From Candidatus Moraniibacteriota bacterium (GTDB lineage: Bacteria; Patescibacteriota; Minisyncoccia; Moranbacterales; GCA-2747515), in the NCBI GenBank assembly GCA_046116545.1, contig CP175956.1, positions 449,734-513,733 of the forward strand: a DNA stretch of 64,000 nucleotides. The letters are read 5' to 3'. The position numbers and the translations under genes are program-made. Below, piece by piece: positions 3,669-47,277 of the stretch (within the stretch, counting starts at the first letter, position 1; every line of letters starts with the position of its first letter). Under the pieces are notes generated by a model. That model searched no databases and was not told the origin of the DNA. It saw only the letters and a program-made list of their open reading frames with translations.

Positions 3669-4464
3669 ACTCCTGCTTTGCTAAAGACTGCCAATCTTCA
3701 ATAGCCAATTCCTGAGCCCGTATATTTTTATCAAATCCTAAATCAAATAATATATTTTCTACATCTTTCTTATCAAGATGAAATCCATTTGCTAAATTAT
3801 TTATAAGTGTTTTTCTTTTTGCACTAAACCCGATTTTTACAACTCTAAAAAATTCTTTTATTTCATCATCTGCTAATCTATTATTTTTAATTGTCAATTT
3901 AATAATTGCACTATCAACTTTTGGTACTGGATCAAAATCTTCTCTCGAAACTGTAAATAAATACTCAACATTTGCATAGTATTGTGCTGATACAGCCAAT
4001 AGACTCATTCCACCAGGATTTGCTGATAAGCGTTCTGCTACTTCTTTTTGTACCATAAGTATAATTTCACTTGGCTGATTTTTTGATTCCAAAAATAATC
4101 TAATTATAGGCGCTGTAATGTAATATGGTATATTTGCAATTACTTTATATGTCTTATGTTTTAGTTCTTGTGTTTTTGAAAATTCTTCTATATTTAATTT
4201 AAGAATATCATCATGAATAATTTTTATATTATCAACACTTTCAAATTCACTTTCTAAAACAGGTATTAATCTATCATCAAGTTCAATTGCAATAACCTTG
4301 CCTGCTTTTTTTGATAATGCCCTTGTCAAAATTCCTTGACCTGGACCAATCTCCAAAATAATATCCTCATTTGTAATATCTGAACTGTTAACAATGTCAC
4401 TAATCACACTATCATTTTTCAAGAAATTTTGTCCCAATGATTTCTTATGTTTAAATTTTTTCAT
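3652..4464 (-). CDS. rsmA: 16S rRNA (adenine1518/1519-N6)-dimethyltransferase RsmA/KsgA
   Basis: SLGQNFLKNDSVISDIV and EIGPGQGILT motifs with length typical of KsgA. Confidence 0.9.
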   Translation of the reverse strand: MKKFKHKKSLGQNFLKNDSVISDIVNSSDITNEDIILEIGPGQGILTRALSKKAGKVIAIELDDRLIPVLESEFESVDNIKIIHDDILKLNIEEFSKTQELKHKTYKVIANIPYYITAPIIRLFLESKNQPSEIILMVQKEVAERLSANPGGMSLLAVSAQYYANVEYLFTVSREDFDPVPKVDSAIIKLTIKNNRLADDEIKEFFRVVKIGFSAKRKTLINNLANGFHLDKKDVENILFDLGFDKNIRAQELAIEDWQSLAKQEFNQIK

Positions 4465-21895: not shown

Positions 21896-21924
21896 TTGTC
21901 AAAATAAGTTTTTTGTAGTATAGT
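21896..21924 (+). promoter_or_regulatory. Sigma70-like promoter (TTGTCA-17-TATAGT) upstream of rpsO
   Basis: Hexamers at 21896-21901 and 21919-21924, about 75 nt upstream of the rpsO ATG. Confidence 0.4.
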
Positions 21925-22001
21925 AGTAAACATAATTAATTTATATCTCGTGTATAGTGGTATTTAATTATTAATACGACTATATCGCAGAATCAAACAC
22001 T

Positions 22002-22277
22002 ATGGCTCTTACAAAGAGACAAAAAACGAATGCTACAACAGAAGCAAAGCGTCATGATACTGACACTGGATCTCCAGAATATCAAATTGCGCTTTTTACA
22101 ACAAGAATCAATAAACTGACAACTCATTTAAAGAAAAATCAACATGATTTTCATTCACGCAGAGGTCTGCTAAAAATGGTTGCTAAAAGAAAAAAATTAC
22201 TTGATTATTTAGCTAGAACTGATGAAAAAGCTTACAAAAAAATCGTGAAACAATTAGGACTTCGGGAACGTAAATAA
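22002..22277 (+). CDS. rpsO: 30S ribosomal protein S15
   Basis: MALTKRQKTNATTEAKRHDTDTGSPEYQIALFTTRINKLTTHLKKNQHDFHSRRGLLKMV in 91 aa. Confidence 0.92.
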   Translation: MALTKRQKTNATTEAKRHDTDTGSPEYQIALFTTRINKLTTHLKKNQHDFHSRRGLLKMVAKRKKLLDYLARTDEKAYKKIVKQLGLRERK

Positions 22278-22425
22278 ATCTGAGACTAGAGAGCGTAGAT
22301 TAAATACGCTCTCTTTTATTTAAAGCACTATAACAATATCAATCTATACTTCAAATATTTTTGATAAAAGGTAACTATTTTTATAAAGAACACTAAACCA
22401 ATTTTTATACATAAAATATAATTAT

Positions 22426-22920
22426 ATGAAACACAAGGATCAACGCGTAGGTGTGGTAGTAGATATACAAAACCTTTACTATAGTGCCCGCGTCTTATAC
22501 AACAAAAAAGTAAATTTTAAAAATCTATTGACAGCATCTGTCGAAAATAGAAAGCTAATACGAGCAATAGGCTATGGAATAACAACTGAAGAAGCTCAGG
22601 AAGATAAGTTTTTTGATGCTCTGGAAAAAATTGGAATGGAGGTAAAGACTAAAGACCTACAAATTTTTGCAGGAGGTCAAAAGAAGGGGGATTGGGATGT
22701 GGGCATCGCAGTTGATGCTATAAAAATGGCTCAAAGTGTTGATGTTATCATACTTGCTTCAGGAGACGGTGACTATATACCAATGGTAAAATATATACAA
22801 AATACTACGGGTTGTCGTGTTGAAGGAGTTTCCTTTGGAGAATCAACGAGTATGCGTCTTATAGAGTCTTTAGATGACTTTCTAGACCTATCTTCAAATA
22901 AAAAACGATTTTTAATTTAA
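22426..22920 (+). CDS. NYN-domain (LabA-like) protein
   Basis: VGVVVDIQNLYYSAR ... DVGIAVDAIKMAQSVDVIILASGDGDYIPMV. Confidence 0.75.
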   Translation: MKHKDQRVGVVVDIQNLYYSARVLYNKKVNFKNLLTASVENRKLIRAIGYGITTEEAQEDKFFDALEKIGMEVKTKDLQIFAGGQKKGDWDVGIAVDAIKMAQSVDVIILASGDGDYIPMVKYIQNTTGCRVEGVSFGESTSMRLIESLDDFLDLSSNKKRFLI

Positions 22921-22989
22921 AAACTTTCAATAAAAACTACCAATGTTCATTTGGTGGTTTTTATTTTTTATCATTTCGATATATAAGGC

Positions 22990-23018
22990 TTGCAAAATTC
23001 TGACTTTTAGTCTATACT
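22990..23018 (+). promoter_or_regulatory. Sigma70-like promoter (TTGCAA-17-TATACT) upstream of rpsA
   Basis: Hexamer spacing of 17 bp, about 180 nt upstream of the start. Confidence 0.3.
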
Positions 23019-23201
23019 TGGATAAACAAAGTTAATTATTAAACAAAAGAATATTTACTCAAACTGAGTGAGAAAAGAAAATGTTTTAATTTTCTTTTGT
23101 TGTTTTATTTAATAATTTCCTTTGTGGAAATTTTTTGCGTTTTTAATTATATAATTAAAGTCTGAAATTAACGCAACAGACTTAATAAGCTTATAGATTT
23201 T

Positions 23202-24539
23202 ATGACAAAAGCTAATGACTTACTTGATAAGATAGTAAAACAAGTTAAAAAAGATACTGAAAAAGAGCAAGAGATTGCTAAAAGCCCAGAAGAAACACCT
23301 ACAGAAGAAACTCTTACAAAATCAGTTGCAACTGAATCAGGTTCTACTGATATGGATGCCCTAATGGATTTGAACGAAGTTTCAATTCCTAGAGTTGGTG
23401 ATGTAATTGATGGTACTATTATTGATATTTCTGCTAGTATTGTTTTGTTGGACATTGGTCCAATTGGAACTGGTATGGTTATTGGACGTGAAGCAAAGAG
23501 TGGCCTTGCTGAGGATGACAAATTACGCGCTGGAAGTGAAGTAACTGCAACAGTTATTGATTTGGATAATGATGATGGTTATATAGAACTTTCAATACGT
23601 GAAGCTTCTTATGAACGTGCTTGGGATGACTTAAAAGCTAAAAAAGATGGTGAAGAAACTATCTTAGTTAAAATGCTTGATGCTAACAAGGGTGGTCTTA
23701 TGGTTGAAGTTAATGGTGTAACTGGTTTCTTACCTGTATCACAACTTTCAAGTAAAAATTATCCTCGTGTAGAAGATGGTGACAAAAATAAGATTCTTGA
23801 ATTATTAAAGAGACTTGTTAGAAAAGAATTGCCTGTTCGAATTATTGATATAAATCAAGAAGATGAAAAACTGATTGTTTCAGAAAAAGCAGCACATAGT
23901 GATATCGAAAGAGAAGCTATTTCAGGGCTACATGTTGGAGATACAATTTCAGGTGAGGTTAGTGGTGTTGTTGATTTTGGTGCTTTTGTTAAGTTTACTC
24001 CTGCTGGAGCTGAATCAGAAGAAGATGATGCAAAACTAGAAGGACTTATTCATATTAGTGAACTTGCATGGCAACTTATTGATAATCCAAGAGAGGTTAT
24101 TAAAGTTGGTGATAAAACAGAAGCAAAAATCATAGGAATTGATGATACTCGTATTTCACTTTCTATAAAGGCACTACTAGAAGATCCTTGGACAAAAATT
24201 ACTGAAAAATATGAGGTTGGTAAGATTTATACTGGTAAAGTTGATAAGATTAACCACTTTGGAGCATTTGTTTACCTTGATAAAGATATCCATGGTCTTG
24301 CACATATCAGTGAATTCCAAGAGCTATATCCTGGTAAAAAACTTGATGATAAGATTGCTCAAAAAGAAGAGTATCAATGGAAAGTACTTTCCATTGAACC
24401 AAAGGAGCATCGCATGGGTCTAGTACTTATGGATGATAAAAAACTAGAAGAAGACAAGACTAAAAAAGATGCCGAGTCAGAAGAAAAGCCTACAGCAACT
24501 AAGAAAAAAGTTGTTAAAAAAGAAGCTGACAAAAAATAG
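23202..24539 (+). CDS. rpsA: 30S ribosomal protein S1 (short, about four S1 domains)
   Basis: Repeated S1-domain signatures (GDVIDGTIIDISASIVLLDIG, GDTISGEVSGVVDFGAFVKF, GKIYTGKVDKINHFGAFVYL) in 445 aa. Confidence 0.8.
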   Translation: MTKANDLLDKIVKQVKKDTEKEQEIAKSPEETPTEETLTKSVATESGSTDMDALMDLNEVSIPRVGDVIDGTIIDISASIVLLDIGPIGTGMVIGREAKSGLAEDDKLRAGSEVTATVIDLDNDDGYIELSIREASYERAWDDLKAKKDGEETILVKMLDANKGGLMVEVNGVTGFLPVSQLSSKNYPRVEDGDKNKILELLKRLVRKELPVRIIDINQEDEKLIVSEKAAHSDIEREAISGLHVGDTISGEVSGVVDFGAFVKFTPAGAESEEDDAKLEGLIHISELAWQLIDNPREVIKVGDKTEAKIIGIDDTRISLSIKALLEDPWTKITEKYEVGKIYTGKVDKINHFGAFVYLDKDIHGLAHISEFQELYPGKKLDDKIAQKEEYQWKVLSIEPKEHRMGLVLMDDKKLEEDKTKKDAESEEKPTATKKKVVKKEADKK

Positions 24540-24546
24540 TATCCTT

Positions 24547-24577
24547 GCGCTCGAGATTCTTCTCGAGCGCTTTTTTT
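24547..24577 (+). terminator. Rho-independent terminator after rpsA
   Basis: GCGCTCGAGA-ttct-TCTCGAGCGC followed by TTTTTTT. Confidence 0.75.
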
Positions 24578-24596
24578 ATCAAACTAATTTATTTTT

Positions 24597-25157
24597 ATGA
24601 TTATAACAATCACTGGAGATCCTGGTTCTGGAAAAAGTACGCTTGGAGAAAAATTAGCAAAGGAACTTGATTATGATAGATACTATATTGGGCAAATACG
24701 ACGTGATGCTGCAAAAAAGATGGGTATGACTCTAGCAGAATATAACAAATATGGAGAAACTCATCCTGAAACTGACTTAGCGGTGGATGATTACCAAAAA
24801 ACTTTAGGTGAAACAAAAGATGCTTTTATAATTGAAGGTCGCACAAGCTGGTTTTTGATTCCAAAATCATTAAAAATTTATATAGAAGTTGATCCAAAAG
24901 AAGGAGCTACTCGTATTTTTAATGACTTACAAAAAGAAAACATCAGGAATGAAGGAGATAATCTCACAAGTGTTGAGGATGTGCTAAATAGCAACATAAA
25001 ACGAGCTGCTAGCGATGAATTACGATATAAAAAATATTATAATAAAAATTGTTTTGATAAAAATAATTTTGACTTTGTTATAGATACAACAAATCTAACA
25101 ATAAATGAGGCTTACTTGGAAGTATTAAAATTCATTCAAGAAAATACAAAAATATAA
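24597..25157 (+). CDS. Cytidylate (CMP) kinase-like P-loop NMP kinase
   Basis: MIITITGDPGSGKSTLGEKLAKEL P-loop in a 186-aa NMP-kinase-like protein. Confidence 0.55.
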   Translation: MIITITGDPGSGKSTLGEKLAKELDYDRYYIGQIRRDAAKKMGMTLAEYNKYGETHPETDLAVDDYQKTLGETKDAFIIEGRTSWFLIPKSLKIYIEVDPKEGATRIFNDLQKENIRNEGDNLTSVEDVLNSNIKRAASDELRYKKYYNKNCFDKNNFDFVIDTTNLTINEAYLEVLKFIQENTKI

Positions 25158-25210
25158 TAGTATATATTAGCTATTTTACTATACTAAAATAGCTAACATT
25201 ATATTCTTAT

Positions 25211-26179
25211 ATGAAAAATTTAATAAAACATGTACAAAATGTGAATTCACAAAATAATCTTTGGAATTCTGGAGACACTATCGTCATTGGTGTATCAGGT
25301 GGTCCTGATAGCATGTGTCTTTTTGATGTGCTTTTAAAAATTGCGGCTAAAAATAATCTTTCTATTATTATAGCTCATGTAAATTATGGTTTACGCGGTG
25401 AAGACTCAGTTGCGGATCAAAGATTAGTTGAAAACCTTGCGCTAATAAACAACGTGACTTGTAAAACATTAGTTTGTACTGATCCTTCTGCTAAAAATGA
25501 AAATGCTTGGCGAAATATTCGCTATAATTTTTTTCAAAAAATCGCAAAATTCCACAATGCCCATTCTATCGCAGTTGCTCATAACAAAAATGATCAGGCT
25601 GAAACATTATTGTTACATTTACTACGAGGTAGCGGTTTAAATGGATTATCTGGAATGCAATTAAAAACAAATAATATTATAAGACCTCTTCTAACAACTT
25701 CCAAGGAAGATATATTGAATTATTGCACTCAAAATAACATTAAATACAATATTGATAAAACAAATGCTACTGCGGAGTTTACACGTAATAAAATCAGAAA
25801 TGAATTAATGCCCTATCTAGAAGAAAATTTTAATAAAAATATAATAAATATATTATCAGCAACAGCAAAAACTATTGGAAATGATTATGCTTTCTTAAAT
25901 GAATCTATTGAAAAATTTTGGTTTATTGATAAATCAAAAAAAATAATTTCATTTAAAGAGCGTGTCTTTATCAATATGCATCCATCAAAACAAAATATGA
26001 CTTTAAGGCTTATGATACATGAGCTCTTAGGGTCTCTTACAAATATTGAAAATGGCTTAATTGAAGAAATGACGAAGACTATAAAAAGTACAAAAAATAA
26101 ACATAAAATCATTGAGACAAAAGACTTGAAAATGATGAAGATTGGTGATACAGTAGAGCTTATGAAGATAAAAGATTAA
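25211..26179 (+). CDS. tilS: tRNA(Ile)-lysidine synthetase
   Basis: PP-loop IVIGVSGGPDSMCL; conserved adjacency to ftsH. Confidence 0.85.
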   Translation: MKNLIKHVQNVNSQNNLWNSGDTIVIGVSGGPDSMCLFDVLLKIAAKNNLSIIIAHVNYGLRGEDSVADQRLVENLALINNVTCKTLVCTDPSAKNENAWRNIRYNFFQKIAKFHNAHSIAVAHNKNDQAETLLLHLLRGSGLNGLSGMQLKTNNIIRPLLTTSKEDILNYCTQNNIKYNIDKTNATAEFTRNKIRNELMPYLEENFNKNIINILSATAKTIGNDYAFLNESIEKFWFIDKSKKIISFKERVFINMHPSKQNMTLRLMIHELLGSLTNIENGLIEEMTKTIKSTKNKHKIIETKDLKMMKIGDTVELMKIKD

Positions 26180-26223
26180 AGTAATTTTTTGTTTTTATTT
26201 TTATAAATTTACTAACTAAAAAT

Positions 26224-28122
26224 ATGGAAAAGATTTTCAAGAATTCTTCGGTTATTATCATGGTATTAATTGTAGTACTAATGTTCATAATGCTTTCAAC
26301 TACATCAAAAGATGAAATTGAAAAAATATCATTAACACAATTATCTCAAGAAATTAATGAAGATAAGGTTGAGGGAATTACGGTTAATTATAATGGTAAA
26401 GTTGAAATTGATATCAAAGATACTGATTTGATGCAAGAAACACACAAAGAACCAGATGCTAGTCTTACAGAAACACTTTTAAATATGGGTGTTAGTCCAG
26501 AAAAACTAAATACTGTTCCAATTACTGTTGAAACAAAATCTGGTGCATCAATGTGGGCTACAATACTTATTCCCTCACTGCTTCCAATATTAATAATTGG
26601 TGCTCTAATTTTCTTCATGATGAAAAGCGCAATGCGTGGAAACAATCAAGCAATGAGCTTTGGTGCTTCAAAAGCAAAAATGATTGATCCTAAAGATGCT
26701 AAAAATAAAACTGCCTTTAAAGATGTCGCTGGTAACAAGGAAGCAAAAGAGGAATTAATAGAAATTGTTGACTTTTTGAAGGCTCCTAAAAAGTTCCAAG
26801 ACTTAGGTGCTAAAATTCCAAAAGGCGTGTTATTACTTGGACGTCCTGGAACTGGTAAAACATTATTAGCCCGAGCAGTTGCTGGTGAAGCTGAGGTTCC
26901 CTTTTTTACAATAAGTGGGTCTGAGTTTGTGGAAATGTTTGTTGGTGTTGGTGCTAGTCGTGTACGAGACTTATTTAAACAAGCAAAGAAACATGCTCCT
27001 TCTATAGTTTTCATTGATGAAATTGATGCTGTAGGTCGACAAAGAGGTACTGGTTTAGGTGGTGGAAATGATGAGAGAGAGCAAACATTAAATCAAATTC
27101 TTGTTGAAATGGATGGTTTTGATAATAATTCAAATGTTATTGTTATCGCTGCAACGAACCGACCTGATGTACTTGATCCTGCATTATTACGACCAGGGCG
27201 ATTTGATAGACGTGTTACAATAGATTTACCTGGAATTGAAGATAGAGAAGCAATCTTAAAAATTCACGCAAAAAATAAAAAACTGTCTACTGATGTCAAT
27301 TTACAAAGAATAGCTCAACGAACACCTGGCTTTTCTGGAGCAGATCTCATGAATTTAATGAATGAAGGAGCACTACTTGCAGGAAGACATAACAAGAAAG
27401 AAGTTGAAATGATTGATTTAATTGAATCAATTGAGAAAGTATTACTTGGACCAGCTCGTAAAAACAAACGACTGGATGAAAAAGAAACAAAAATTGTAGC
27501 TTATCATGAAGCTGGTCATGCGCTTATTGGTGCAAGTCTTGAAAATGCAGACCCTGTACAAAAAGTATCTATAATATCAAGAGGTAGTGCAGGAGGATAT
27601 ACGCTTTCTGTTCCTGAAAAAGATCAGACTCTTCACTCTAAAGCATATTTCATAGATGAATTATCTGTATTTCTGGGAGGTTATGTTGCTGAAAAAATGA
27701 TATTTGGAGATACTACAACGGGACCCTCAAATGACCTAGAGCGAGCTACTCAACTTGCTAGAAATATGGTTGTTAAATTCGGCATGAGTGACATGGGAGT
27801 GCGCACATTTGGTAAAAATGAAGAGTATAGCTTCTTGGGCCGTGAAGTATCTGAAGAAAAAGATTATTCAGAAAATACTGCTGATACTATAGATAAAACA
27901 GTTTCAGAATTTCTCTCAGAAGCTAAAAAACGTACAGAAGATATCTTAACAGAGAAGAAAGATATTCTTGAAAAAATAGCAACTGTATTATTAGAAAAAG
28001 AAACTATTGAAAAAGATGAGTTTGATGCAATTATTGCAGGTAAAGAATATAAAGAACCTACTACAAAGAATGTTACAAAAAATGATGAAGTTACTAGTAT
28101 TGATGCAACAATAAAAGAATAG
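26224..28122 (+). CDS. ftsH: ATP-dependent zinc metalloprotease FtsH
   Basis: N-terminal TM segments, AAA motif [21 protein letters not shown], zinc motif HEAGHAL, 632 aa; ends with TAG. Confidence 0.93.
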
Positions 28123-28169
28123 TATTTAGGTCGTTGTAGTGATGGAATAGAATTCTTTCACTACAAAAA

Positions 28170-28243
28170 GGACGGCTAGCTCAGTTGGTTAGAGCGCTTG
28201 CTCGACACGCAAGAGGTCACAGGTTCGAATCCCGTGTCGTCCA
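28170..28243 (+). tRNA. tRNA-Val (anticodon GAC) with unusual C33 and an A-C mismatch in the T-stem
   Basis: Cloverleaf GGACGGC/GTCGTCC acceptor, D-arm GCTCAGTTGGTTAGAGC, anticodon stem CTTGC/GCAAG with loop TCGACAC, T-loop GGTTCGAATCC. Confidence 0.7.
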
Positions 28244-38045: not shown

Positions 38046-38738
38046 TGTTCCACGTGGAACAGTCTTAACTATACCTCCTAAATAGCTCTATAATTATTTT
38101 TCTTTAACTTTGTTCCACATGGAACAAAGTCTCTTGCATTACATTAATTTGCCCATGACATTCAAAATTGTTCTACGTGGAACAATCTCCTAATTGATTT
38201 ATCTTACAAAGTAATACCAATCCATGTTCCATGTGGAACATTTTATTGTTTACACTGTATTTTCTGTTCAATTTTTATAAAATTTTGTTCTACGTGGAAC
38301 ACCTCAGTGCCATTCATGCGCTCTCATTTAAATATTTGCACTCTGTAATGTTCCACATGGAACATTATACGATTTTCTGAGTTACTGAGTAGCGTTTTTA
38401 CATAAATTGTTCCATGTGGAACAATTTACCAGTTTTCTCCTATAATATGATCATTAGTTTACTACTAGATGTTCCACATGAAACATCTTCTTATTTCTAT
38501 TATCGTAATAGTCAAACTTGGTATTTAATAGTTCTACGTGGAACAAGTACATTATCTTACTCTTTTTCCTTAATTTATATTCCAAACAACTATTTTAATT
38601 CTATAAAGACATCTTTTACATTAAATGTTCCATGTGGAACATTATTAATAGGGAAGTATGTTTAAAAGTTCCACGTAGAACATCTCCCTTATATTTTTTA
38701 AATGAGATTATATAACTTGTATAGTTCTACGTGGAACA
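38046..38738. repeat. Array of 12 parS-like 16-bp palindromes (TGTTCCACGTGGAACA) spaced about 60 bp apart
   Basis: Copies begin at 38046, 38111, 38169, 38225, 38286, 38349, 38408, 38470, 38530, 38626, 38667 and 38723. The core matches the ParB-binding parS consensus tGTTtCACGTGaAACa, and the spacers between copies are unique. Confidence 0.75.
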
Positions 38739-38878: not shown

Positions 38879-38950
38879 GTCCCGGTAGTTCAATGGATAG
38901 AACAAGTCCCTCCTAAGGATTAGATAAAGGTTCGACTCCTTTCTGGGACA
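38879..38950 (+). tRNA. tRNA-Arg (anticodon CCT)
   Basis: GTCCCGG/CTGGGAC acceptor, anticodon loop CTCCTAA, T-loop AAAGGTTCGACTCCTTT. Confidence 0.85.
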
Positions 38951-38975
38951 CATTATATAATTAAACATAACCATC

Positions 38976-39302
38976 ATGAGTGATAGAATGCGAAAAGTTA
39001 ATTCCGTTATCCAACGAGAGATGTCTGAATTAATTATGAAGAAAGTTGATTTTAAGCCTGGTGTTTTTGTAACTATTTCCAAGGTTGACACTACTAGTGA
39101 TCTCATGTATACTCGTATATTCGTTCGAGTATTTCCCCAAAAAGATATTAATTATTCAATGAAGACACTCGAGCATGAAAGAATTGCCATGCAGAAATTA
39201 TTACATAAAAAACTACATTTAAAAGTTTTACCTAAAATATCATTTATACATGATCAAGGAGGTGATGATATTGATGAATTAGAAAAACTTTTGCAACAAT
39301 AA
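38976..39302 (+). CDS. rbfA: Ribosome-binding factor A
   Basis: RKVNSVIQREMSELI ... PGVFVTISKVDTTSDLMYTRIFV in 108 aa. Confidence 0.8.
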   Translation: MSDRMRKVNSVIQREMSELIMKKVDFKPGVFVTISKVDTTSDLMYTRIFVRVFPQKDINYSMKTLEHERIAMQKLLHKKLHLKVLPKISFIHDQGGDDIDELEKLLQQ

Positions 39303-39346
39303 TAACTGTGATGGCATAATACCTAAAATATTTTCACTGATTCATT

Positions 39347-40321
39347 ATGTCAAAACAGTATTTTTTGAAAGAATTTAATACACTTAGTTATATATTGCAA
39401 AGTTCTAGCAATATTCTTATCATTGGACACTCAAGTCCTGATGCTGATGCTGTAGGTAGTATAGTTGCACTACGTGAATTCATAAAAAAACATTATTCAG
39501 CAGATGTAACACTTGGTTGTTATGATGCTTTTCCGAAATCTTTAATGACTCTCATTCCAGATACTTTTCTCATACATCCTGAAGATTTAGATATTACATC
39601 ATTTGATGTAATTATTGGTTGTGACAGTGTTGATAGGGGATTCAATGATGTAATTAAAGATGCTTCAGATTCTTGTGTTACAGTAATAATTGATCATCAT
39701 CATGATACTATCACTAGAGCTGATTTGTTCATGAATGATGCTAATTATTCCTCAACTTGTGAAATATTATATAATTTTTTTAAGTTCACACATAAATCCA
39801 TTACAAAAAATATTGCAACAGCACTCTTAGCTGGCATCATTTTTGATACAGGAGCTTTTCAACACTCTAATACAACTGCTGAAACACTTTCAGCAGCCTC
39901 AAATTTAGTGAAGGGTGGTGGCTCTATAACAAAAATAAACAGAGCTCTGTTTTCTAATAGAAATGTAGAAACACTAAATTTGTGGGGAAGAGCACTTGAG
40001 CGAACAAAATTTCATAAAAAAACAGGCCTTGCTGTTGCAGCAATAACAACCGATGATTTAAATGGCTATTTAATAAATTCAGGAGAAATTTCAAATATTG
40101 CTTCCATGCTTACAACAGTTCCTGATGTACGAGCTGCTCTAATAGTATATCAATCCGATCCCAACACAATAAAGGGGAGCTTACGCGCTGAAAAGCATGG
40201 TGGTATTGATGTTTCTGCAATTGCACACACACTTGGTGGTGGTGGGCATAAATTAGCAAGTGGATTTTCTATTCCCGGAAAAATAAAAACTCTTCCTAAT
40301 GGTAATTGGAAAATTGTATAA
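39347..40321 (+). CDS. nrnA: DHH-family phosphoesterase NrnA (oligoribonuclease / pAp phosphatase)
   Basis: IIGHSSPDADAVGS, DHHHDT and GGGGHKLASG (DHHA1). Confidence 0.8.
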   Translation: MSKQYFLKEFNTLSYILQSSSNILIIGHSSPDADAVGSIVALREFIKKHYSADVTLGCYDAFPKSLMTLIPDTFLIHPEDLDITSFDVIIGCDSVDRGFNDVIKDASDSCVTVIIDHHHDTITRADLFMNDANYSSTCEILYNFFKFTHKSITKNIATALLAGIIFDTGAFQHSNTTAETLSAASNLVKGGGSITKINRALFSNRNVETLNLWGRALERTKFHKKTGLAVAAITTDDLNGYLINSGEISNIASMLTTVPDVRAALIVYQSDPNTIKGSLRAEKHGGIDVSAIAHTLGGGGHKLASGFSIPGKIKTLPNGNWKIV

Positions 40322-40416
40322 AGTACCATTAATTAATATATTGCTTAATAATTTATATTTAAATTGATTGACTATACATATAATTTTTGATATCCTAGCA
40401 TATGTATCAATAATAT

Positions 40417-40487
40417 GGTCGCGTGGCCGAGCGGTTAGGCAAAGGTCTGCAAAACCTTGTACCCCGGTTCAAATCCGGGCGCGACCT
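40417..40487 (+). tRNA. tRNA-Cys (anticodon GCA)
   Basis: GGTCGCG/CGCGACC acceptor, anticodon loop CTGCAAA, T-loop GGTTCAAATCC, U73 discriminator. Confidence 0.85.
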
Positions 40488-40518
40488 CAAAATTATGATA
40501 TAATGAATTTACTAACGT

Positions 40519-40603
40519 GCCCGGGTGGTGGAATTGGTAGACACGAGGGACTTAAAATCCCTTGGATGAATAATCCGTGCGAGTTCAAGTCTCGCCTCGG
40601 GCA
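40519..40603 (+). tRNA. tRNA-Leu (anticodon TAA), class II
   Basis: GCCCGGG/CTCGGGC acceptor, anticodon loop CTTAAAA, long variable arm, T-loop GAGTTCAAGTCTC. Confidence 0.85.
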
Positions 40604-40612
40604 CTTAAAAAA

Positions 40613-40641
40613 ACACACCTAGTAATAGGTGTGTTTTTTAT
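40613..40641 (+). terminator. Rho-independent terminator after tRNA-Leu
   Basis: ACACACCT-agtaat-AGGTGTGT followed by TTTTTTAT. Confidence 0.7.
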
Positions 40642-40650
40642 ATTTTTTCA

Positions 40651-41157
40651 TTAACTAATTACATACGCAACTAGACTTCTTCTTCCAAATGCAAATGCTT
40701 CAGATTTTGTTTCCATATAAATGTCAAAATGATTTCCTTTTATAGCACCTCCACGATCTTCACATGTATATATACCCATGCCTTCGATATGAATTTCAGT
40801 ACCAAACTCATATCCTCGTGGACAGGCAAGTGTATGTTTTTCTTTTACCATATTTCCACTTGCTGTTATACCATCACTTTTTCCACATTCATCTGCTGCA
40901 GCTGTATATGCTGATGCATTAATTGTAAATTTTTCTGGTATTGGCTCTACATATTGTGCTTTTTTATATTCTCCATTTGCTAATCCACAAACTATCCCTC
41001 CACCGTCTATATTTGTATATGTATTTATCTTATTTTCTGTTGTACTTGTAGTGTTTTTTGCATTTACTGTAATAACTGTAAATACACTTATGATTACTAT
41101 AAATACTATATATCTCATTAATGAGACTAAATTATTAACATGCCCACGATACTTCAT
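40651..41157 (-). CDS. 3D-domain (MltA/YuiC-like) secreted cell-wall protein
   Basis: Signal or anchor, then ASAYTAAADECGKSDGITASG ... CEDRGGAIKGNHFDIYM with conserved Asp residues. Confidence 0.6.
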   Translation of the reverse strand: MKYRGHVNNLVSLMRYIVFIVIISVFTVITVNAKNTTSTTENKINTYTNIDGGGIVCGLANGEYKKAQYVEPIPEKFTINASAYTAAADECGKSDGITASGNMVKEKHTLACPRGYEFGTEIHIEGMGIYTCEDRGGAIKGNHFDIYMETKSEAFAFGRRSLVAYVIS

Positions 41158-41322
41158 CTAAACTTTTCTCGTAGATAACACGGTTGACTCTGTGCCAACG
41201 CACTTTTTCAAGTCAACATATTACTATAGCATATTTTATATACCTTGTCAAGTTGACAAAGTCCTCTCAGTGGTCTATTGTTCATTGTTATTTAACAATT
41301 CCTGCAAACTTATTACTTTCAC

Positions 41323-41694
41323 ATGGAGGTTATTTTAATGGAAAATCTGATTTTAATATTAGATGATGGCTTTGAGATAACATCTTACTCAAAAAAATAT
41401 CTCTCCAAAATAGGTGCTTTGTTATTTTTACACTACAATGACTATTTAACTCAAAAAAATATAATCAATTGTATAAAAGATCGTCCACAAGATATCCAGA
41501 ATGAGGTTACTATCTCAATATCACGTTATGAATCTATTTTACTTAATTTTAATTCATTAAAAGATATAAACACTGACTTACATATCTTTATATCCAGATT
41601 CCCAGCAGATAACTCACAATCCTTATTTATAACTATTTCAGATAAGTATAAACCTATTGTAAAAAAATTGTTGTCTGATATTATTTTTGAATAA
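41323..41694 (+). CDS. Hypothetical protein
   Basis: 123-aa ORF with no recognised motif. Confidence 0.35.
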   Translation: MEVILMENLILILDDGFEITSYSKKYLSKIGALLFLHYNDYLTQKNIINCIKDRPQDIQNEVTISISRYESILLNFNSLKDINTDLHIFISRFPADNSQSLFITISDKYKPIVKKLLSDIIFE

Positions 41695-41752
41695 AATTAT
41701 TAAACTCCTGCATAATAACTATGTGGGGGTTTTCACTTTCTCCGCCAAACAC

Positions 41753-41781
41753 TTGACTTATTAACGTTTTTAGCTTAATAT
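41753..41781 (+). promoter_or_regulatory. Sigma70-like promoter (TTGACT-17-TAATAT) upstream of rplS
   Basis: Hexamers at 41753-41758 and 41776-41781. Confidence 0.35.
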
Positions 41782-41878
41782 GATGAAAGGTTTTGATATG
41801 AATATGTTATCAAATATTTTTTGTGTTTAATATGTTCATAACCACTATTTTATTATAAATTTTTTAAACAACAGACCT

Positions 41879-42319
41879 ATGCGAAATGAAGTTATAGAAT
41901 TCAACAAAACTCAGAGAAAAGATACTATTGCTTTTCGTGCTGGTGATGTTGTAAAAGTTCACCGTAAAATTAAAGAAGGTGAAAAAGAAAGAATTCAGAT
42001 TTTTGAGGGAATGGTAATTGCAATGAAGGGTGGACAAAGTAGTTCTCCGATGATGACTATCCGAAAAGTATCTAATGGAGTTGGTATCGAAATTATAGTT
42101 CCTATCTTTTCACCAACTATTGAAAAGATAGAATTAGTAAAAAGAGCTAAAGTTCGACGATCAAAACTTTACTTTGTGCGAGATAAGGCTGCAAAAGCTT
42201 TGCGCTTCAAATACACAGATGGTGCTGAAATATCTCCTGAAGAAGTTGTTGAGGAAAAGAATCTTGAAGTAAAAGAGGTTGCAAAAGATACAGAAAAAGC
42301 TGAATCAGTAGAAAAATAA
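41879..42319 (+). CDS. rplS: 50S ribosomal protein L19 with a C-terminal acidic extension
   Basis: AFRAGDVVKVHRKIKEGEKERIQIFEGMVIAMKGG...TIRKVSNGVGIE. Confidence 0.9.
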   Translation: MRNEVIEFNKTQRKDTIAFRAGDVVKVHRKIKEGEKERIQIFEGMVIAMKGGQSSSPMMTIRKVSNGVGIEIIVPIFSPTIEKIELVKRAKVRRSKLYFVRDKAAKALRFKYTDGAEISPEEVVEEKNLEVKEVAKDTEKAESVEK

Positions 42320-42344
42320 TTATAAATTTTCAAAAACAAGGTTT

Positions 42345-42372
42345 TAAAACCTTGTTTTTTTTATTGCTTTTT
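42345..42372 (+). terminator. Rho-independent terminator after rplS
   Basis: AAACAAGGTTTTAAAACCTTGTTT palindrome followed by TTTTTT. Confidence 0.65.
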
Positions 42373-42414
42373 TGCAAAAAATATAGTAAAATACCTTTTG
42401 TGTTATTCTCTTAA

Positions 42415-42498
42415 GCCCAGGTGGTGGAATTGGTATACACACATGGTTGAGGGCCATGGCTTTTTATAAGCATGCGGGTTCAAGTCCCGCCCTGGGCA
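42415..42498 (+). tRNA. tRNA-Leu (anticodon GAG), class II
   Basis: GCCCAGG/CCTGGGC acceptor, anticodon loop TTGAGGG, long variable arm. Confidence 0.85.
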
Positions 42499-42560
42499 CA
42501 AGTATTGATTTTTTATTTAAAAAGTGTATAATAGAATCTGTTGACAAATTATTTATAAAT

Positions 42561-42634
42561 GCACGCTTAGCTCAGCTGGTTAGAGCATCTCATTTACACT
42601 GAGGAGGCCGGGGGTTCGAATCCCTCAGCGTGCA
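42561..42634 (+). tRNA. tRNA-Val (anticodon TAC)
   Basis: GCACGCT/AGCGTGC acceptor, anticodon loop TTTACAC, T-loop GGTTCGAATCC. Confidence 0.85.
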
Positions 42635-42656
42635 CATAGTGTCAAAAGAAATATAA

Positions 42657-42728
42657 GCCGAGGTAGCTCAGTGGTAGAGCAAAGGACTGAAAATCCTTGT
42701 GTCGAGAGTTCAATTCTCTCCCTCGGCA
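42657..42728 (+). tRNA. tRNA-Phe (anticodon GAA)
   Basis: GCCGAGG/CCTCGGC acceptor, anticodon loop CTGAAAA. Confidence 0.85.
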
Positions 42729-42835
42729 CATTGTATTTTTTAAAACACTCACTAAGAGACTTTCAAAAGTCTTTTTTTGTTTGACGAAATGAAAAAAAAC
42801 ATATAAAATATTTAGGTATTCAATTTAAGGAATAG

Positions 42836-42907
42836 GGGACTATAGCTCAGTGGTAGAGCACGCGACTCATAATCGCTTGGTCGCAGGTTCGAACCCTGCT
42901 AGTCCCA
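42836..42907 (+). tRNA. tRNA with CAT anticodon (elongator Met or lysidine-modified Ile2)
   Basis: GGGACTA/TAGTCCC acceptor with a paired first position, so not an initiator tRNA. Anticodon loop is CTCATAA. tilS is present in this window. Confidence 0.8.
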
Positions 42908-42922
42908 CAATATAGTAATTTT

Positions 42923-42994
42923 GCGAGTGTCGTATAATGGTTATTACACCACCTTGCCAAGGTAGAAATGGCGGTTCGATCCCGCTCACTCGCT
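42923..42994 (+). tRNA. tRNA-Gly (anticodon GCC)
   Basis: ACACCACCTTGCCAAGGTAG anticodon arm, T-loop GGTTCGATCC, U73 discriminator. Confidence 0.8.
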
Positions 42995-43016
42995 CATAAA
43001 ATAAAAAACTACAGAA

Positions 43017-43110: not shown

Positions 43111-43518
43111 CTATTCGCCTTTTACACATTTACCACAAAGACAACCTTCTTTACTTATAATGTCTTCTACGTACTCCTCACCATAATCAAAAGTAAATTC
43201 TTCTCCATGTTCTATCTCTCGTAGAGCATAAAACATTATTTGTTCTTCATCTTCTATTACCGCTTCTATATTTGGCTCACAAGAATGATTAATATATCTA
43301 CCTGTATGTTCTCGTCCTGTACCATCTAAGACAATTTTATCATTAAGCGTAAATAAATATCGTCCACCTTTTTGATTTGACTGCTCATGTGTTAATGGTT
43401 CTCCTGTGTATTCAATTATAAAATCATCTTTTATAAAATTACGATTAGCAAAAAGACCTAGTCCTGCACTTGAGCGCCCTACTCGATAATTTTCTGTTGT
43501 GTTTTTCCCATTTGTCAT
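43111..43518 (-). CDS. SET-domain protein (putative protein lysine methyltransferase)
   Basis: GRYINHSCEPN and EFTFDYG SET signatures in 135 aa. Confidence 0.8.
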   Translation of the reverse strand: MTNGKNTTENYRVGRSSAGLGLFANRNFIKDDFIIEYTGEPLTHEQSNQKGGRYLFTLNDKIVLDGTGREHTGRYINHSCEPNIEAVIEDEEQIMFYALREIEHGEEFTFDYGEEYVEDIISKEGCLCGKCVKGE

Positions 43519-43889: not shown

Positions 43890-44873
43890 CTAAACTTTGT
43901 AGTTATCAACATATTTCAATAAGGCACTAAATCTATCTGGATAATTAGCTTCAAAATTATATTCTTCTCCATTTAATTTAAAAGCCAACTCCTTAGCATG
44001 TAGATAAAATGTGCTTGGATCATATTCTTTAAATTCACTCAAATCTATTTGTCTCTCATTTTTTGTATAATATCTTTCATCACCTACAAGAGGATGTCCT
44101 TTATGTAACATATGTACTCTTATTTGATGAGTTCTTCCTGTCTTAGGTTTTACTTCTACACATGCAACCTGTAATGCTTCTGATAAATTATATTCAGATA
44201 TTACATTGTATTCTGTTTGAGCTTCTTTTGAATCACCTTTATATCTACCAAAAGCTATTTTTTGCTTTGTGTATGAAGTTGCTCGTGCTATTGGAGCATC
44301 TATTAGTCCATTTAATTCATCAAAAAGACCAAAAACTATAGCATGATATGTCTTTTGAATCTCTCTTTTTTGAAAAAGTTCCTTTAATTGATCAAAAGTC
44401 TCTTGGTTTTTAGCTATAACCATAAGTCCTGTAGTATCTTTATCAAGTCTGTGTACTATACCAGGTCTTTCTTCATCATCACCTACACCAGAAATCTCTG
44501 GGAATATAGCTAAAAGTGCATTTACAAGGGTTTCTTCTCGCTCTCTATGGCTTGGATGTACTTGTAATCCTCTTTGTTTGTTTATTATTGCAAAATTTTC
44601 ATTACTCTCCAAAATATCTAATACTATATTTTTATTTGGTACTATTTTATCATCTTGTTCTTCAAATTCACCCATTGTTATAATTTCATTACCTTTAAGT
44701 TTATAACTAGGTTTAACCTTTAAATCATTAACTAAGACGACTTCTGTCCGAATCATTTTTATTATTTCACCCCTTGTCCTATCCTCATTTTTTTTAGCTA
44801 AGAATTTATCTATCCGAATTCCTTTGTTTTTCTCTTCTACATTTATAATTTCATTCATAATATTATATTTCAC
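43890..44873 (-). CDS. rluD: RluA-family 23S rRNA pseudouridine synthase (RluD-like)
   Basis: S4-like N-terminus; catalytic motif HRLDKDTTGLMVIAKN. Confidence 0.85.
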   Translation of the reverse strand: MKYNIMNEIINVEEKNKGIRIDKFLAKKNEDRTRGEIIKMIRTEVVLVNDLKVKPSYKLKGNEIITMGEFEEQDDKIVPNKNIVLDILESNENFAIINKQRGLQVHPSHREREETLVNALLAIFPEISGVGDDEERPGIVHRLDKDTTGLMVIAKNQETFDQLKELFQKREIQKTYHAIVFGLFDELNGLIDAPIARATSYTKQKIAFGRYKGDSKEAQTEYNVISEYNLSEALQVACVEVKPKTGRTHQIRVHMLHKGHPLVGDERYYTKNERQIDLSEFKEYDPSTFYLHAKELAFKLNGEEYNFEANYPDRFSALLKYVDNYKV

Positions 44874-45837
44874 TAATTACATCAAAACCTTTTACACTTC
44901 CTACAATAGCATACCCAAATACATTTTGTGCCACATTATTTCTTTTACACTTACAGGCGAGTTGCTCCAAAGTTGCTCCAGAACCCACAGCATCATCAAT
45001 TATAAGTATGTTGTCATATTCACCTTTATCATCCACGACCATTGTTTCTTTTGCATTCTTTATACGATCATCAATTTTTGAAAGTGTTTTTTGTGGCACT
45101 ACAATTTCACCATGTACTTTAACAATATTTATTACTGGTAAAGCAATATTTAATTCATCTTGTAAAATACGCATGAATTGTATTTTACGATCAATAGATG
45201 GTGGTGCAAATCCAATTGCTTGTATATTTTCTTTTTTTATTATAGACAATACATCATCTTTTATCATTTCTACAACCTTTTTTATCATTTTTCTATCTTG
45301 ACTTTGTTTTGAATACATTACTAGTTGTCCTATTTTTGTCTTACCAAAAATTTCCCATGCATAGAACTCACTATAAAATACATCGTTAATACATTTAGTG
45401 TTAAAAACTTTATGCATTTTCACTGTACCTTTGATTAAATTATTCTCTTTATATTGTTTATATTTATCATAAATATCACAATATTCAACAGCTTTTTTAC
45501 TTATATCAAAATCTCTTTTGTCACACCAGATTCTAAAACCATTTAAACCATCCGCTTTTTCTCCATTTGGCATGATATAAAGAAAGTTTTTTTCAATAAT
45601 ATCACGCTTTTGTTGATCTATCTCAATTTTTACATCAACAAACTCTTTTTTATTTTCACTTGGAAAATAATATACACGTGGTGGGGAACCTCGTTTTAGA
45701 ACACTCTTTTCTTCTATAAGTTTTTTAAGATGTCGTTGAACCATTGCTCGAGTTAATTGAAATTCATTAATTAATTCAATTACCGTTGCTTGTTCCTTTT
45801 CTTGAATATATTTCAATATCTTATCACGAGAAGACAT
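44863..45837 (-). CDS. Winged-helix HTH domain fused to a type I phosphoribosyltransferase domain (PurR-like architecture)
   Basis: N-terminal ILKYIQEKEQATVIELINEFQLTRAMVQRHLKKLIEEK; C-terminal PRPP-binding motif ILIIDDAVGSGATLEQL. Confidence 0.55.
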   Translation of the reverse strand: MSSRDKILKYIQEKEQATVIELINEFQLTRAMVQRHLKKLIEEKSVLKRGSPPRVYYFPSENKKEFVDVKIEIDQQKRDIIEKNFLYIMPNGEKADGLNGFRIWCDKRDFDISKKAVEYCDIYDKYKQYKENNLIKGTVKMHKVFNTKCINDVFYSEFYAWEIFGKTKIGQLVMYSKQSQDRKMIKKVVEMIKDDVLSIIKKENIQAIGFAPPSIDRKIQFMRILQDELNIALPVINIVKVHGEIVVPQKTLSKIDDRIKNAKETMVVDDKGEYDNILIIDDAVGSGATLEQLACKCKRNNVAQNVFGYAIVGSVKGFDVISEI

Positions 45838-46041
45838 AACTATTTTATAATTAATTTATAGTATATAGTATACAGTGTATTATATACTATGTCAATTAAC
45901 CATTTAACTCTTTTATTCACAAGGACATCTATAGTACATATAATAATACTATGGATGTATTTTTAGTTTCACCTCAGCACAAACCTTTATTTAAAAGAAA
46001 TTTCATATTACATTATATGGAATTCAAAAAAGTTTTTATAG

Positions 46042-46645
46042 TTATCCACTTATCAACAAGTTATCCACTTTTTCAATAATATATTAATTTCATATTAGTT
46101 ATTTATAAGGACATGTCCTTGAGGCTGTCCTCGTATTATATATACATAATGGGTACAAGGAACAATACTACAATGAGTGCTAGTTATTTAGAAATGGTAT
46201 GAAGAAATATTATAAAATATCGTCTTTGCGAGTAGTAGTATTCTTTATCATGATCTACGAAGCAATATCAATAAGATTACTTCACATTATTATATTGAAA
46301 ATAGCTTTTATCTGCAAAGACAATGCTATTTTTCAAAACTAATTATACAAAAAGTTTATTGAAAACTTATACTTACTACGTTTTAAACGCACTTACTAGT
46401 TATGCTACTAGTTTTTAAGTATAATAAAAAACTAGGAGGGACATTGTTTCTTGAGATAAAAAAATATAAGATTTTTGCATTATTTACACTTTTTCCTTTT
46501 TAAGTTTATGGTTATCAACAGAAAACTGTGGATAACCTGTTAATTATGTGGATAACTTCTTGTGGATAACTTTGTATATTCTTGTGCACAATATTCCATT
46601 GTTGTGGATAACTATACATTATTTACACTTTTTTAGTTATCCACA
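46042..46645. promoter_or_regulatory. Putative chromosomal replication origin (oriC): a DnaA-box cluster in a 1.4-kb AT-rich intergenic region
   Basis: TTATCCACT at 46042 and 46061; TGTGGATAA at 46527, 46547, 46561 and 46613; TTATCCACA at 46637; TTATCAACA at 46512. An AT-rich DUE-like stretch lies at 46738-46790. Genes to the left run on the minus strand and genes to the right run on the plus strand. Confidence 0.6.
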
Positions 46646-47277
46646 TTTAGCAACACATATACACACCCTTACACACATGTCTTATTTTTGTGTTATTTAC
46701 TACATTTTTCCACAATATTCACTTATACATACAGTAATAGTAATAATAAATTATATATATAATAAGTTATTATATTACAGATTCATTCTATGTCTCAAAA
46801 TATATATCAACTAAAAAACATCTCCGATTCATAACCATCTATTAAAATAAAATTGGAGTAGTTATTATTTAGATTTAATAGTGTAATCTTACAGAGAAAA
46901 GATTTTTAATATAATAAATAATGAAATTAGTTATCACATGTTTTTTTTCTAGTAGGATTAATATTATTTACTTATCTATTTAGTATATAAAATCATTTAT
47001 ATGGAAACTAAACTATAATAGTTCAATAATAGACTAACATATTGTTATGTTGCAGCTAATAAATAAAATAGGCACATAAACAGTCAGTATATGAAAGCTA
47101 AACATTTTCAGAATAATATATTATTGAAGTTAGTTTCAAATTAAGATTTGATATAAACTGTACAATTATGGTATTGACAAAATATATAAAGTATGCTATA
47201 GTTTAATGTTGTTGAGATAGTTCTCTAAAAATTTAAGATAAATCTATTATTTCGTCTATTGGCGAAAAGGGGATGTT

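Follow-up and report, generated by a model that had tools for sequence, protein, structure and literature searches.

A candidate chromosomal replication origin set apart from dnaA in a Candidatus Moraniibacteriota genome

The window analysed here is a 64-kb stretch of a Candidatus Moraniibacteriota (Patescibacteria) genome of ~1.29 Mb, and its interval at 46.5-46.8 kb is highly likely, judging from sequence, to be the functional chromosomal origin of replication (oriC). An earlier note on this DNA had proposed that the window spans the chromosomal origin. That proposal is supported by strand asymmetry, by the arrangement of DnaA boxes, DnaA-trios and AT-rich DNA, by duplex stability, by conservation, and by homology to classical origins; the sequence elements, their uniqueness and conservation, the polarity of the skew and the positions of dnaA can all be read directly from the genomes compared below. 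The site is very probably a standard DnaA-dependent origin of the basal unwinding system (BUS) type, in which the unwinding module has been relocated in one clade. A 100%-identical overlapping contig of the same strain (L054, identical to the right end of the window at 4,280 of 4,280 bases) extends the window to a 73.8-kb composite. The parts of the predicted origin, in window coordinates, are as follows.

45838-47277, no strand: origin-bearing intergenic region between the divergent wHTH-PRT (winged-helix/phosphoribosyltransferase-like) and RluD genes (minus) and a type IV secretion system (T4SS)-like operon (plus)
46042-46069, plus strand: left mini-cluster of three one-mismatch DnaA boxes, TTATCCACT, TTATCAACA and TTATCCACT, accessory
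46512-46645, no strand: main DnaA-box cluster, one single-mismatch box at 46512 (plus) and five exact boxes; proposed DnaA assembly region
46706-46731, plus strand: trio-proximal boxes pointing at the trios, TTTTCCACA at 46706 (1 mismatch), ATATTCACT at 46715-46723 (3 mismatches) and TTATACATA at 46723-46731 (2 mismatches)
46734-46748, minus strand: DnaA-trio-like repeat, top strand GTA ATA GTA ATA ATA, bottom strand 3'-CAT TAT CAT TAT TAT-5', five trios in register
46749-46790, no strand: AT-rich DNA unwinding element
46839, no strand: minimum of the cumulative G-C skew

The intergenic region is 1,440 bp long and has ~25% G+C (~30% across the window), in agreement with the gene-free, AT-rich stretch of 1.4 kb described in the earlier note. 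It holds 11 DnaA boxes, of which five are exact copies of TTATCCACA (46527, 46547, 46561 and 46603 on the minus strand, 46637 on the plus strand) and six carry one mismatch (45913, 46042, 46050, 46061, 46512 and 46706, all plus). The whole window has 8 exact boxes, compared to 1.17 +/- 1.13 in shuffles of the 64 kb, and five of the eight fall within 119 bp (46527-46645). A density of seven boxes (no more than one mismatch each) per 300 bp was reached in 0 of 20,000 random placements. Hence an intergenic DnaA-box cluster of the kind expected at oriC is present. The earlier note had recognised this cluster but undercounted it at seven or more boxes. It had also given two forward boxes at 46042-46069, where there are three, all with one mismatch, and four reverse boxes at 46527-46621; these four are exact, but the group ends at 46611. 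Its single forward box at 46637 is indeed exact and on the plus strand.

To the right of the cluster lies a candidate unwinding module. By the published definition, a BUS consists of a DnaA box with at most 2 mismatches, an optional second box with at most 4, a spacer of 0-16 bp, and three or more NAN trios (consensus 3'-GAT-5') on whichever strand has its 3' end towards the box (Pelliciari 2021, PMC8287927). An AT-rich unwinding region follows the trios in the published Bacillus subtilis and Clostridium origins, and C. difficile confirms the polarity, its top strand reading box and then CTA/TTA repeats (PMC7561715). In the source genome, ATATTCACT (3 mismatches) and TTATACATA (2 mismatches) form degenerate tandem boxes separated from the first trio by 2 nt. 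The five trios that follow fit the generic NAN rule, the consensus GAT appearing only as the first trio of relatives, and the AT-rich element adjoins them directly. The combination of a box with at most 2 mismatches, a spacer of at most 16 nt and at least five NTA trios occurs only once in the 73.8 kb, at 46734, with 0.025 occurrences expected from simulated sequence. Furthermore, no 41-bp duplex of the window or of the composite is less stable than the one that starts at 46735 (rank 1 of 73,752), and G+C content falls to 13% in 46730-46789. This corroborates the unwinding-like tract that the earlier note had placed at 46738-46790. A plus-strand register for the trios (5'-TAA TAG TAA TAA TAA-3', with the guiding box on the right) was considered and rejected, as there is no box within 16 bp on the right and the consensus boxes of relatives, on the left, face the repeat.

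Within the 73.8 kb, strand asymmetry changes sign at the same place. The minimum of the cumulative G-C skew over the window, at 46839, stays put when the window is extended to the composite. G-C skew at third codon positions (GC3 skew) tracks the replication strand and not gene orientation, and its sign changes at the skew minimum, not at dnaA. Minus-strand genes left of the site have GC3 skews of -0.2 to -0.8, and plus-strand genes of the left arm are mostly negative as well; minus-strand genes at 61-64 kb have values of +0.39 to +0.42, and minus-strand genes across 61-69 kb mostly have values of +0.1 to +0.55. The exception is a block of positive skew at 21.9-28.2 kb (S15, NYN, S1-domain protein, cytidylate-kinase-like, TilS, FtsH and tRNA-Val genes). 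In the relative L003, S15-NYN-S1 directly follows the homologue of a 123-aa gene (window 41323-41694). The block is inverted and translocated relative to L003, and its positive skew is explained by this rearrangement of 21900-28200, which is probably recent.

Neither dnaA nor dnaN is encoded in any reading frame of the window. The earlier note was right that neither gene flanks the region, but the two are not far away: dnaA begins ~5 kb past the right end of the window, 22.3 kb from the unwinding element, and has a box cluster of its own. After the T4SS block come two Wzy-like genes, two glycosyltransferases, a flippase, jag, yidC, rnpA and rpmH, all on the minus strand, then a 378-bp spacer, and then, on the plus strand, dnaA (69103-70512 in window-equivalent coordinates), dnaN (70552-71694) and a DciA homologue. 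The genome thus encodes DnaA, a protein of 469 aa with all Pfam domains present. A DciA-family gene lies 3' of dnaN here and in all Moraniibacteriota loci examined.

We considered whether the true origin could be the classical rpmH-dnaA region (window-equivalent 68725-69102), with the cluster at 46.6 kb a titration or regulatory locus like datA or DARS. Within 130 bp directly upstream of dnaA, the rpmH-dnaA spacer carries three exact boxes and a further box with one mismatch, in the textbook context of divergent rpmH and dnaA, and oriC usually adjoins dnaA (PMC10225481). However, those boxes surround a TGnTATAAT promoter (L054 3242-5228, window-equivalent 68565-70551), which fits autoregulation, and a similar motif, TTATCCAC(A/T)...TTATTAAC, lies upstream of dnaA in other Moranbacteria. 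The spacer contains no convincing box-trio module, its BUS-like matches using 2-mismatch pseudo-boxes with 3-4 weak trios, and its least stable 41-mer ranks 1439th, compared to 1st for that at 46735. The dnaA-dnaN spacer is only 39 bp long (39, 18 and 18 bp across members of the clade), and neither it nor the rpmH-dnaA spacer holds an unwinding region. GC3 skew keeps its sign at dnaA, the minus-strand genes to the left having values of +0.45, +0.55, +0.13, +0.16, -0.19 and +0.09, and there is no sign change there in L003 either. Finally, relatives have the unwinding core beside dnaA (see below), but here it is absent from that position and present at 46.7 kb. An origin at rpmH-dnaA is therefore very unlikely, and the box cluster there, which overlaps the dnaA promoter, most likely serves autoregulation. 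A titration or reactivation site (datA, DARS) at 46.6 kb is contradicted by the unwinding element and the skew switch, both present at the site.

Comparison with relatives identifies which part of the intergenic region is conserved. The gene order, with a T4SS operon and wHTH-RluD-SET genes diverging from a gap, is kept in L004 (82% protein identity) and in L003 (56%, on a 1.18-Mb contig), and both gaps contain a DnaA-box cluster and a local skew minimum. In a three-way alignment, a core of ~300 bp (46500-46800) is strongly conserved, and the spacer at 46100-46450 is unconserved or absent. The core includes the boxes and a nearly invariant block, TATACATACAGTAATAGTAATAATAAATTATATATATAATA; the AT-rich element is nearly invariant across relatives. 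Boxes 46527, 46561, 46603 and 46637 are conserved in both L004 and L003, as is the box-trio register; the left mini-cluster is conserved only in the 82% relative. The core is at the same position in L037 and L027 as in L004 and L003, and a local skew minimum coincides with it in each syntenic locus that is long enough (L001, L003, L004 and L037). The boxes next to the trios are at or near consensus in relatives: TTATCCACT and TTATCCACA in L051, TTATCCACT and TTATACATA in L025 and L014, and ATATCCACA in L037. The full arrangement reads TTATCCACTTATCCACA-CAA-CTA ATA GTA ATA ATA in L051 and ATATCCACA-CA-CTA... in L037, and the first trio is CTA (the canonical 3'-GAT-5') in L003, L037, L025, L014 and L051.

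A metagenome scan with the core pattern returned 43 loci, six of them true cores; the other 37 were discarded as chance AT-rich matches without adjacent trio-proximal DnaA boxes. In L051, from Nomurabacteria, dnaA and dnaN are 224 bp apart with the core between them, in a textbook locus where jag-yidC-yidD-rnpA-rpmH diverges from dnaA-dnaN. The best 120 matches to the DnaN of another Nomurabacteria locus, L049, all belong to Nomurabacteria. In L059, from a more distant member of the Moraniibacteriota (66% DnaA identity), a 229-bp dnaA-dnaN spacer contains three exact boxes and the same trio core. This stretch is the least stable duplex of the L059 locus, and GC3 skew flips across it, from -0.21 in dnaA to +0.70 in dnaN. 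Because the same core occupies the dnaA-dnaN spacers of L051 and L059, we identify it as the predicted oriC unwinding module of this lineage.

The separation of this module from dnaA is seen beyond the source genome. On the L003 contig, the core maps to ~430,500 and dnaA to 464,047, a distance of 33.5 kb. The genes between them are in the order seen in the source genome, dnaA and dnaN are separated by 18 bp, and the skew stays positive on either side of dnaA and for at least another 11 kb. The surroundings of dnaA are likewise the same in a third genome, L061 (1.55 Mb). The displaced arrangement is therefore old within the clade. Three other Moranbacteria (L062-L064, DnaA ~60% identical) have no TAATAGTAATAATA trio/AT core in their rpmH-dnaA or dnaA-dnaN spacers, and their GC3 skew stays positive from one side of dnaA to the other. 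This hints that the origin may be displaced from dnaA in these genomes too, and perhaps more widely among Moranbacteria. A scan of a genome collection with the wHTH-PRT protein found just two distant loci, labelled 'Saccharibacteria', and these were without a box cluster. Our literature search found no paper on Moranbacteria origins.

Known bipartite origins such as oriC1/oriC2 of Helicobacter and incAB/incC of Bacillus cooperate across ~1-2 kb. Since exact boxes occur in both clusters of the source genome, we also considered a split bipartite origin in which the dnaA-proximal and 46.6-kb clusters, 22 kb apart, both contribute to initiation. Relatives with the classical layout flank dnaA with two clusters (in L051, boxes at 4311/4322 and 5940/5949), so that the derived state looks like a separation of the two. 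However, the distance here is far from that of known examples and varies among relatives (22.3 and 33.5 kb), which argues against constrained looping, and the 46.6-kb site already has both a multi-box cluster and an unwinding module. Joint initiation from the two clusters is quite unlikely.

Several observations weigh against an origin at 46.5-46.8 kb. The trio-proximal boxes are degenerate in the source genome (2 and 3 mismatches), and the trios read 3'-CAT/TAT-5' and not the canonical 3'-GAT-5'. A second DnaA-box cluster, with three exact boxes, exists 22 kb away at the classical rpmH-dnaA position. The skew minimum at 46839 is that of a 73.8-kb stretch alone, out of ~1.29 Mb, and from 38 to 43 kb and from 66 to 69 kb the skew is close to zero. 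Eight tRNA genes together with the L19, RbfA and NrnA-like genes (38879-42995, plus strand) would be head-on to the proposed fork. The head-on orientation of L19 is also seen in L003. The switch in gene orientation that the earlier note had marked at the region is clear locally, where the flanking genes diverge, but weak overall, as 18 of the 40 left-arm open reading frames (ORFs) in the per-gene skew analysis and all nine tRNA genes are on the plus strand. The head-on tRNA/L19 block weakens this orientation argument and not the argument from skew.

The predicted origin has the order and orientation of B. subtilis incC (DnaA-boxes 6/7, DnaA-trios, AT-rich 27-mer). The two share tandem boxes pointing at a short spacer, then three or more 3-nt repeats with a central A, carried by the strand that has its 3' end towards the boxes, and then an AT-rich tract. 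The L051 and L059 modules occupy the dnaA-dnaN spacer as in Bacillus, whereas the module of the source clade is 22-33 kb from dnaA-dnaN. Unlike in Bacillus, the proximal boxes of the source genome are degenerate, the trios are 3'-(C/T)AT-5' except for the first trio of relatives, and the source origin has no GC-rich spacer cluster. This B. subtilis type of oriC unwinding module is known as the basal unwinding system (Richardson 2016 and 2019; Pelliciari 2021, PMC8287927).

In E. coli, dnaA retains promoter-proximal boxes for autoregulation. The arrangement described here resembles E. coli oriC (gidA-mioC) in that an origin with DnaA boxes and an unwinding element lies tens of kb from a dnaA gene that keeps such boxes. 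Unlike at the E. coli origin, the neighbours are the T4SS and wHTH-PRT-RluD genes, GATC is not enriched (it occurs once in 1.44 kb) and 13-mer repeats are absent. The site also has a strong BUS signature, in contrast to the weak BUS score reported for E. coli (PMC8287927); the same source describes the separation of E. coli oriC from dnaA. More generally, origins are usually but not always beside dnaA, and displaced origins are a recognised exception (PMC10225481).

From the anatomy of the site and the published basal-unwinding-system model, we infer DnaA binding, unwinding and initiation at 46.5-46.8 kb. DnaA would bind the high-affinity boxes at 46512-46645 and next the plus-oriented boxes at 46706-46731, which face the trios. 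Starting at the tandem boxes next to the trios, a DnaA-ATP oligomer would then grow along the trios of the bottom strand (46734-46748) and would stretch and melt the adjoining AT block at 46749-46790, where the helicase would be loaded, presumably helped by the DciA homologue encoded after dnaN. Forks would leave in both directions, to the right through the T4SS operon and to the left through wHTH-PRT/RluD. Related lineages have the core in the dnaA-dnaN spacer, and in the source clade it is 22-33 kb away, beyond the T4SS and a block of polysaccharide genes. Translocation, serial inversions, or duplication followed by loss may each have produced this arrangement, and they fit the data alike.

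The neighbouring genes are the wHTH-PRT gene on the left (44863-45837, minus strand), with an RluD-type pseudouridine synthase gene behind it (43890-44873, minus strand), and on the right the plus-strand T4SS-like operon from 47278, which encodes VirB6/TrbL-like, PrgI, TraC-like and VirB4-like proteins. Its first gene begins ~500 bp from the unwinding element, so the T4SS-like locus is origin-proximal, as had been supposed. The wHTH-PRT protein and DnaA, both identical to those studied here, are recorded on a single Candidatus Moraniibacteriota contig of 1,286,331 bp. The rest of the window has the housekeeping content of a small genome with ~30% G+C (NrdD/NrdG, L19, RbfA, PNPase, FtsH, TilS, KsgA and nine tRNAs). 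It also encodes a UbiA-like protein, for which a look-up gave no record. Two promoter-like features lie within the intergenic region, towards either end.

45858-45895, minus strand: conserved palindrome ATAGTATATAGTATAC.GTGTATTATATACTAT, overlapping a promoter-like TTGACA-17-TATACT and nearly invariant in the three-genome alignment
47174-47202, plus strand: promoter-like site of the T4SS-like operon, TTGACA-17-TATAGT with extended TG, conserved in L004

The palindrome, whose 16-nt arms span 45858-45890 over the predicted wHTH-PRT promoter, is nearly invariant down to 56% protein identity. It is probably the autoregulatory promoter/operator of the wHTH-PRT gene and outside the origin proper. 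The promoter-like site of the T4SS operon is ~390 bp to the right of the unwinding element.

A cluster between two divergent promoters, beside a conjugation-derived T4SS, could also serve mainly as operators for DnaA control of both promoters (wHTH-PRT and T4SS), or be the oriV of an integrated conjugative element (ICE) that carries the T4SS. However, 600-780 bp lie between the boxes and the wHTH-PRT promoter, and 460-660 bp between them and that of the T4SS. The window contains no Rep gene, no integrase and no iterons except DnaA boxes, and searches of 45838-47277 for plasmid and phage similarity gave no match; there is thus no adjacent replication or integration gene, iteron array or mobile-replicon similarity of the kind that marks a plasmid or ICE oriV. 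Housekeeping genes lie on the flanks, the replication-type skew reaches well past the T4SS block, and the core is homologous to chromosomal dnaA-dnaN origins. In addition, the T4SS loci of Patescibacteria are chromosomal and mostly without a relaxase (PMC12102498). An operator or oriV function is extremely unlikely. An Rfam scan of the spacer (45838-47277) gave nothing at E<0.6, and the small ORFs inside it are not conserved in the alignment of relatives.

A further feature lies to the left of the chromosomal origin proposed here, in the gap between NrdD and RbfA.

38046-38738, no strand: 12 parS-like palindromes with the consensus TGTTCCACGTGGAACA, spaced ~56-96 bp apart, mostly ~60

These palindromes are perfect or near-perfect and are 8 kb from the predicted origin, as stated in the earlier note. 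The L001 and L004 arrays have 12 copies each; L003 has no parS-like array within 10 kb of its origin, and no parA or parB gene is present in the window. The array is supporting evidence for origin proximity. It should also be noted that a tandem parS array of such density is unusual. Other side observations concern single genes. The wHTH-PRT family is widespread in Patescibacteria (1,608 matches) and without characterised function. Near the predicted origin, at 43111-43518, a gene for a SET-domain (lysine methyltransferase-like) protein of 135 aa keeps its position in L003 and L004. Directly after the 705-aa NrdD gene comes a separate ORF of 62 aa with an NRDD Pfam match (L001 20075-20263, window ~35.4-35.6 kb), which may be a split-off or spare C-terminal glycyl-radical domain.

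Part of this picture is already known, namely that origins can lie apart from dnaA and that T4SS loci are close to the origin in Patescibacteria, with dnaA as proxy. In a 2025 study, Patescibacteria T4SS loci tended to lie near dnaA, dnaN, rnpA and rpmH, taken as an origin proxy (PMC12102498). The T4SS cluster described here, like those published, is within ~20 genes of dnaA, dnaN, rnpA and rpmH; beyond that work, its operon abuts the predicted unwinding element, with dnaA at the other end of the block. Two points are new: in this clade specifically, 22-33 kb separate the unwinding module from dnaA-dnaN, and the trio/AT core is strongly conserved across orders.

Current understanding of the origin mechanism is unchanged by these results. 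They narrow the predicted origin in the genome of an uncultured, ultra-small bacterium of the candidate phyla radiation to a 300-bp element, and they indicate that, for at least one clade of Patescibacteria, dnaA stands in only imperfectly for oriC, which bears on origin annotation, on peak-to-trough estimates of replication rate from metagenomes, and on claims about origin gene dosage. The comparison of an ancestral with a derived state, in which two lineages have a trio/AT core of ~30 nt between dnaA and dnaN and another has it 22-33 kb away, offers a natural test case for the relocation of a BUS-type unwinding module. A further idea, itself unlikely, is that an ancestral bipartite origin was split, that its unwinding half became coupled to the T4SS operon, with DnaA occupancy timing or dosing T4SS expression with initiation, and that the dnaA-proximal half is now merely an autoregulatory operator; if true, this would be a lineage-specific rewiring of the origin and the host-interaction machinery in an obligate epibiont. 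With the predicted origin placed at 46.5-46.8 kb, the association of T4SS loci with the origin in these bacteria would hold for the origin itself, beyond dnaA.

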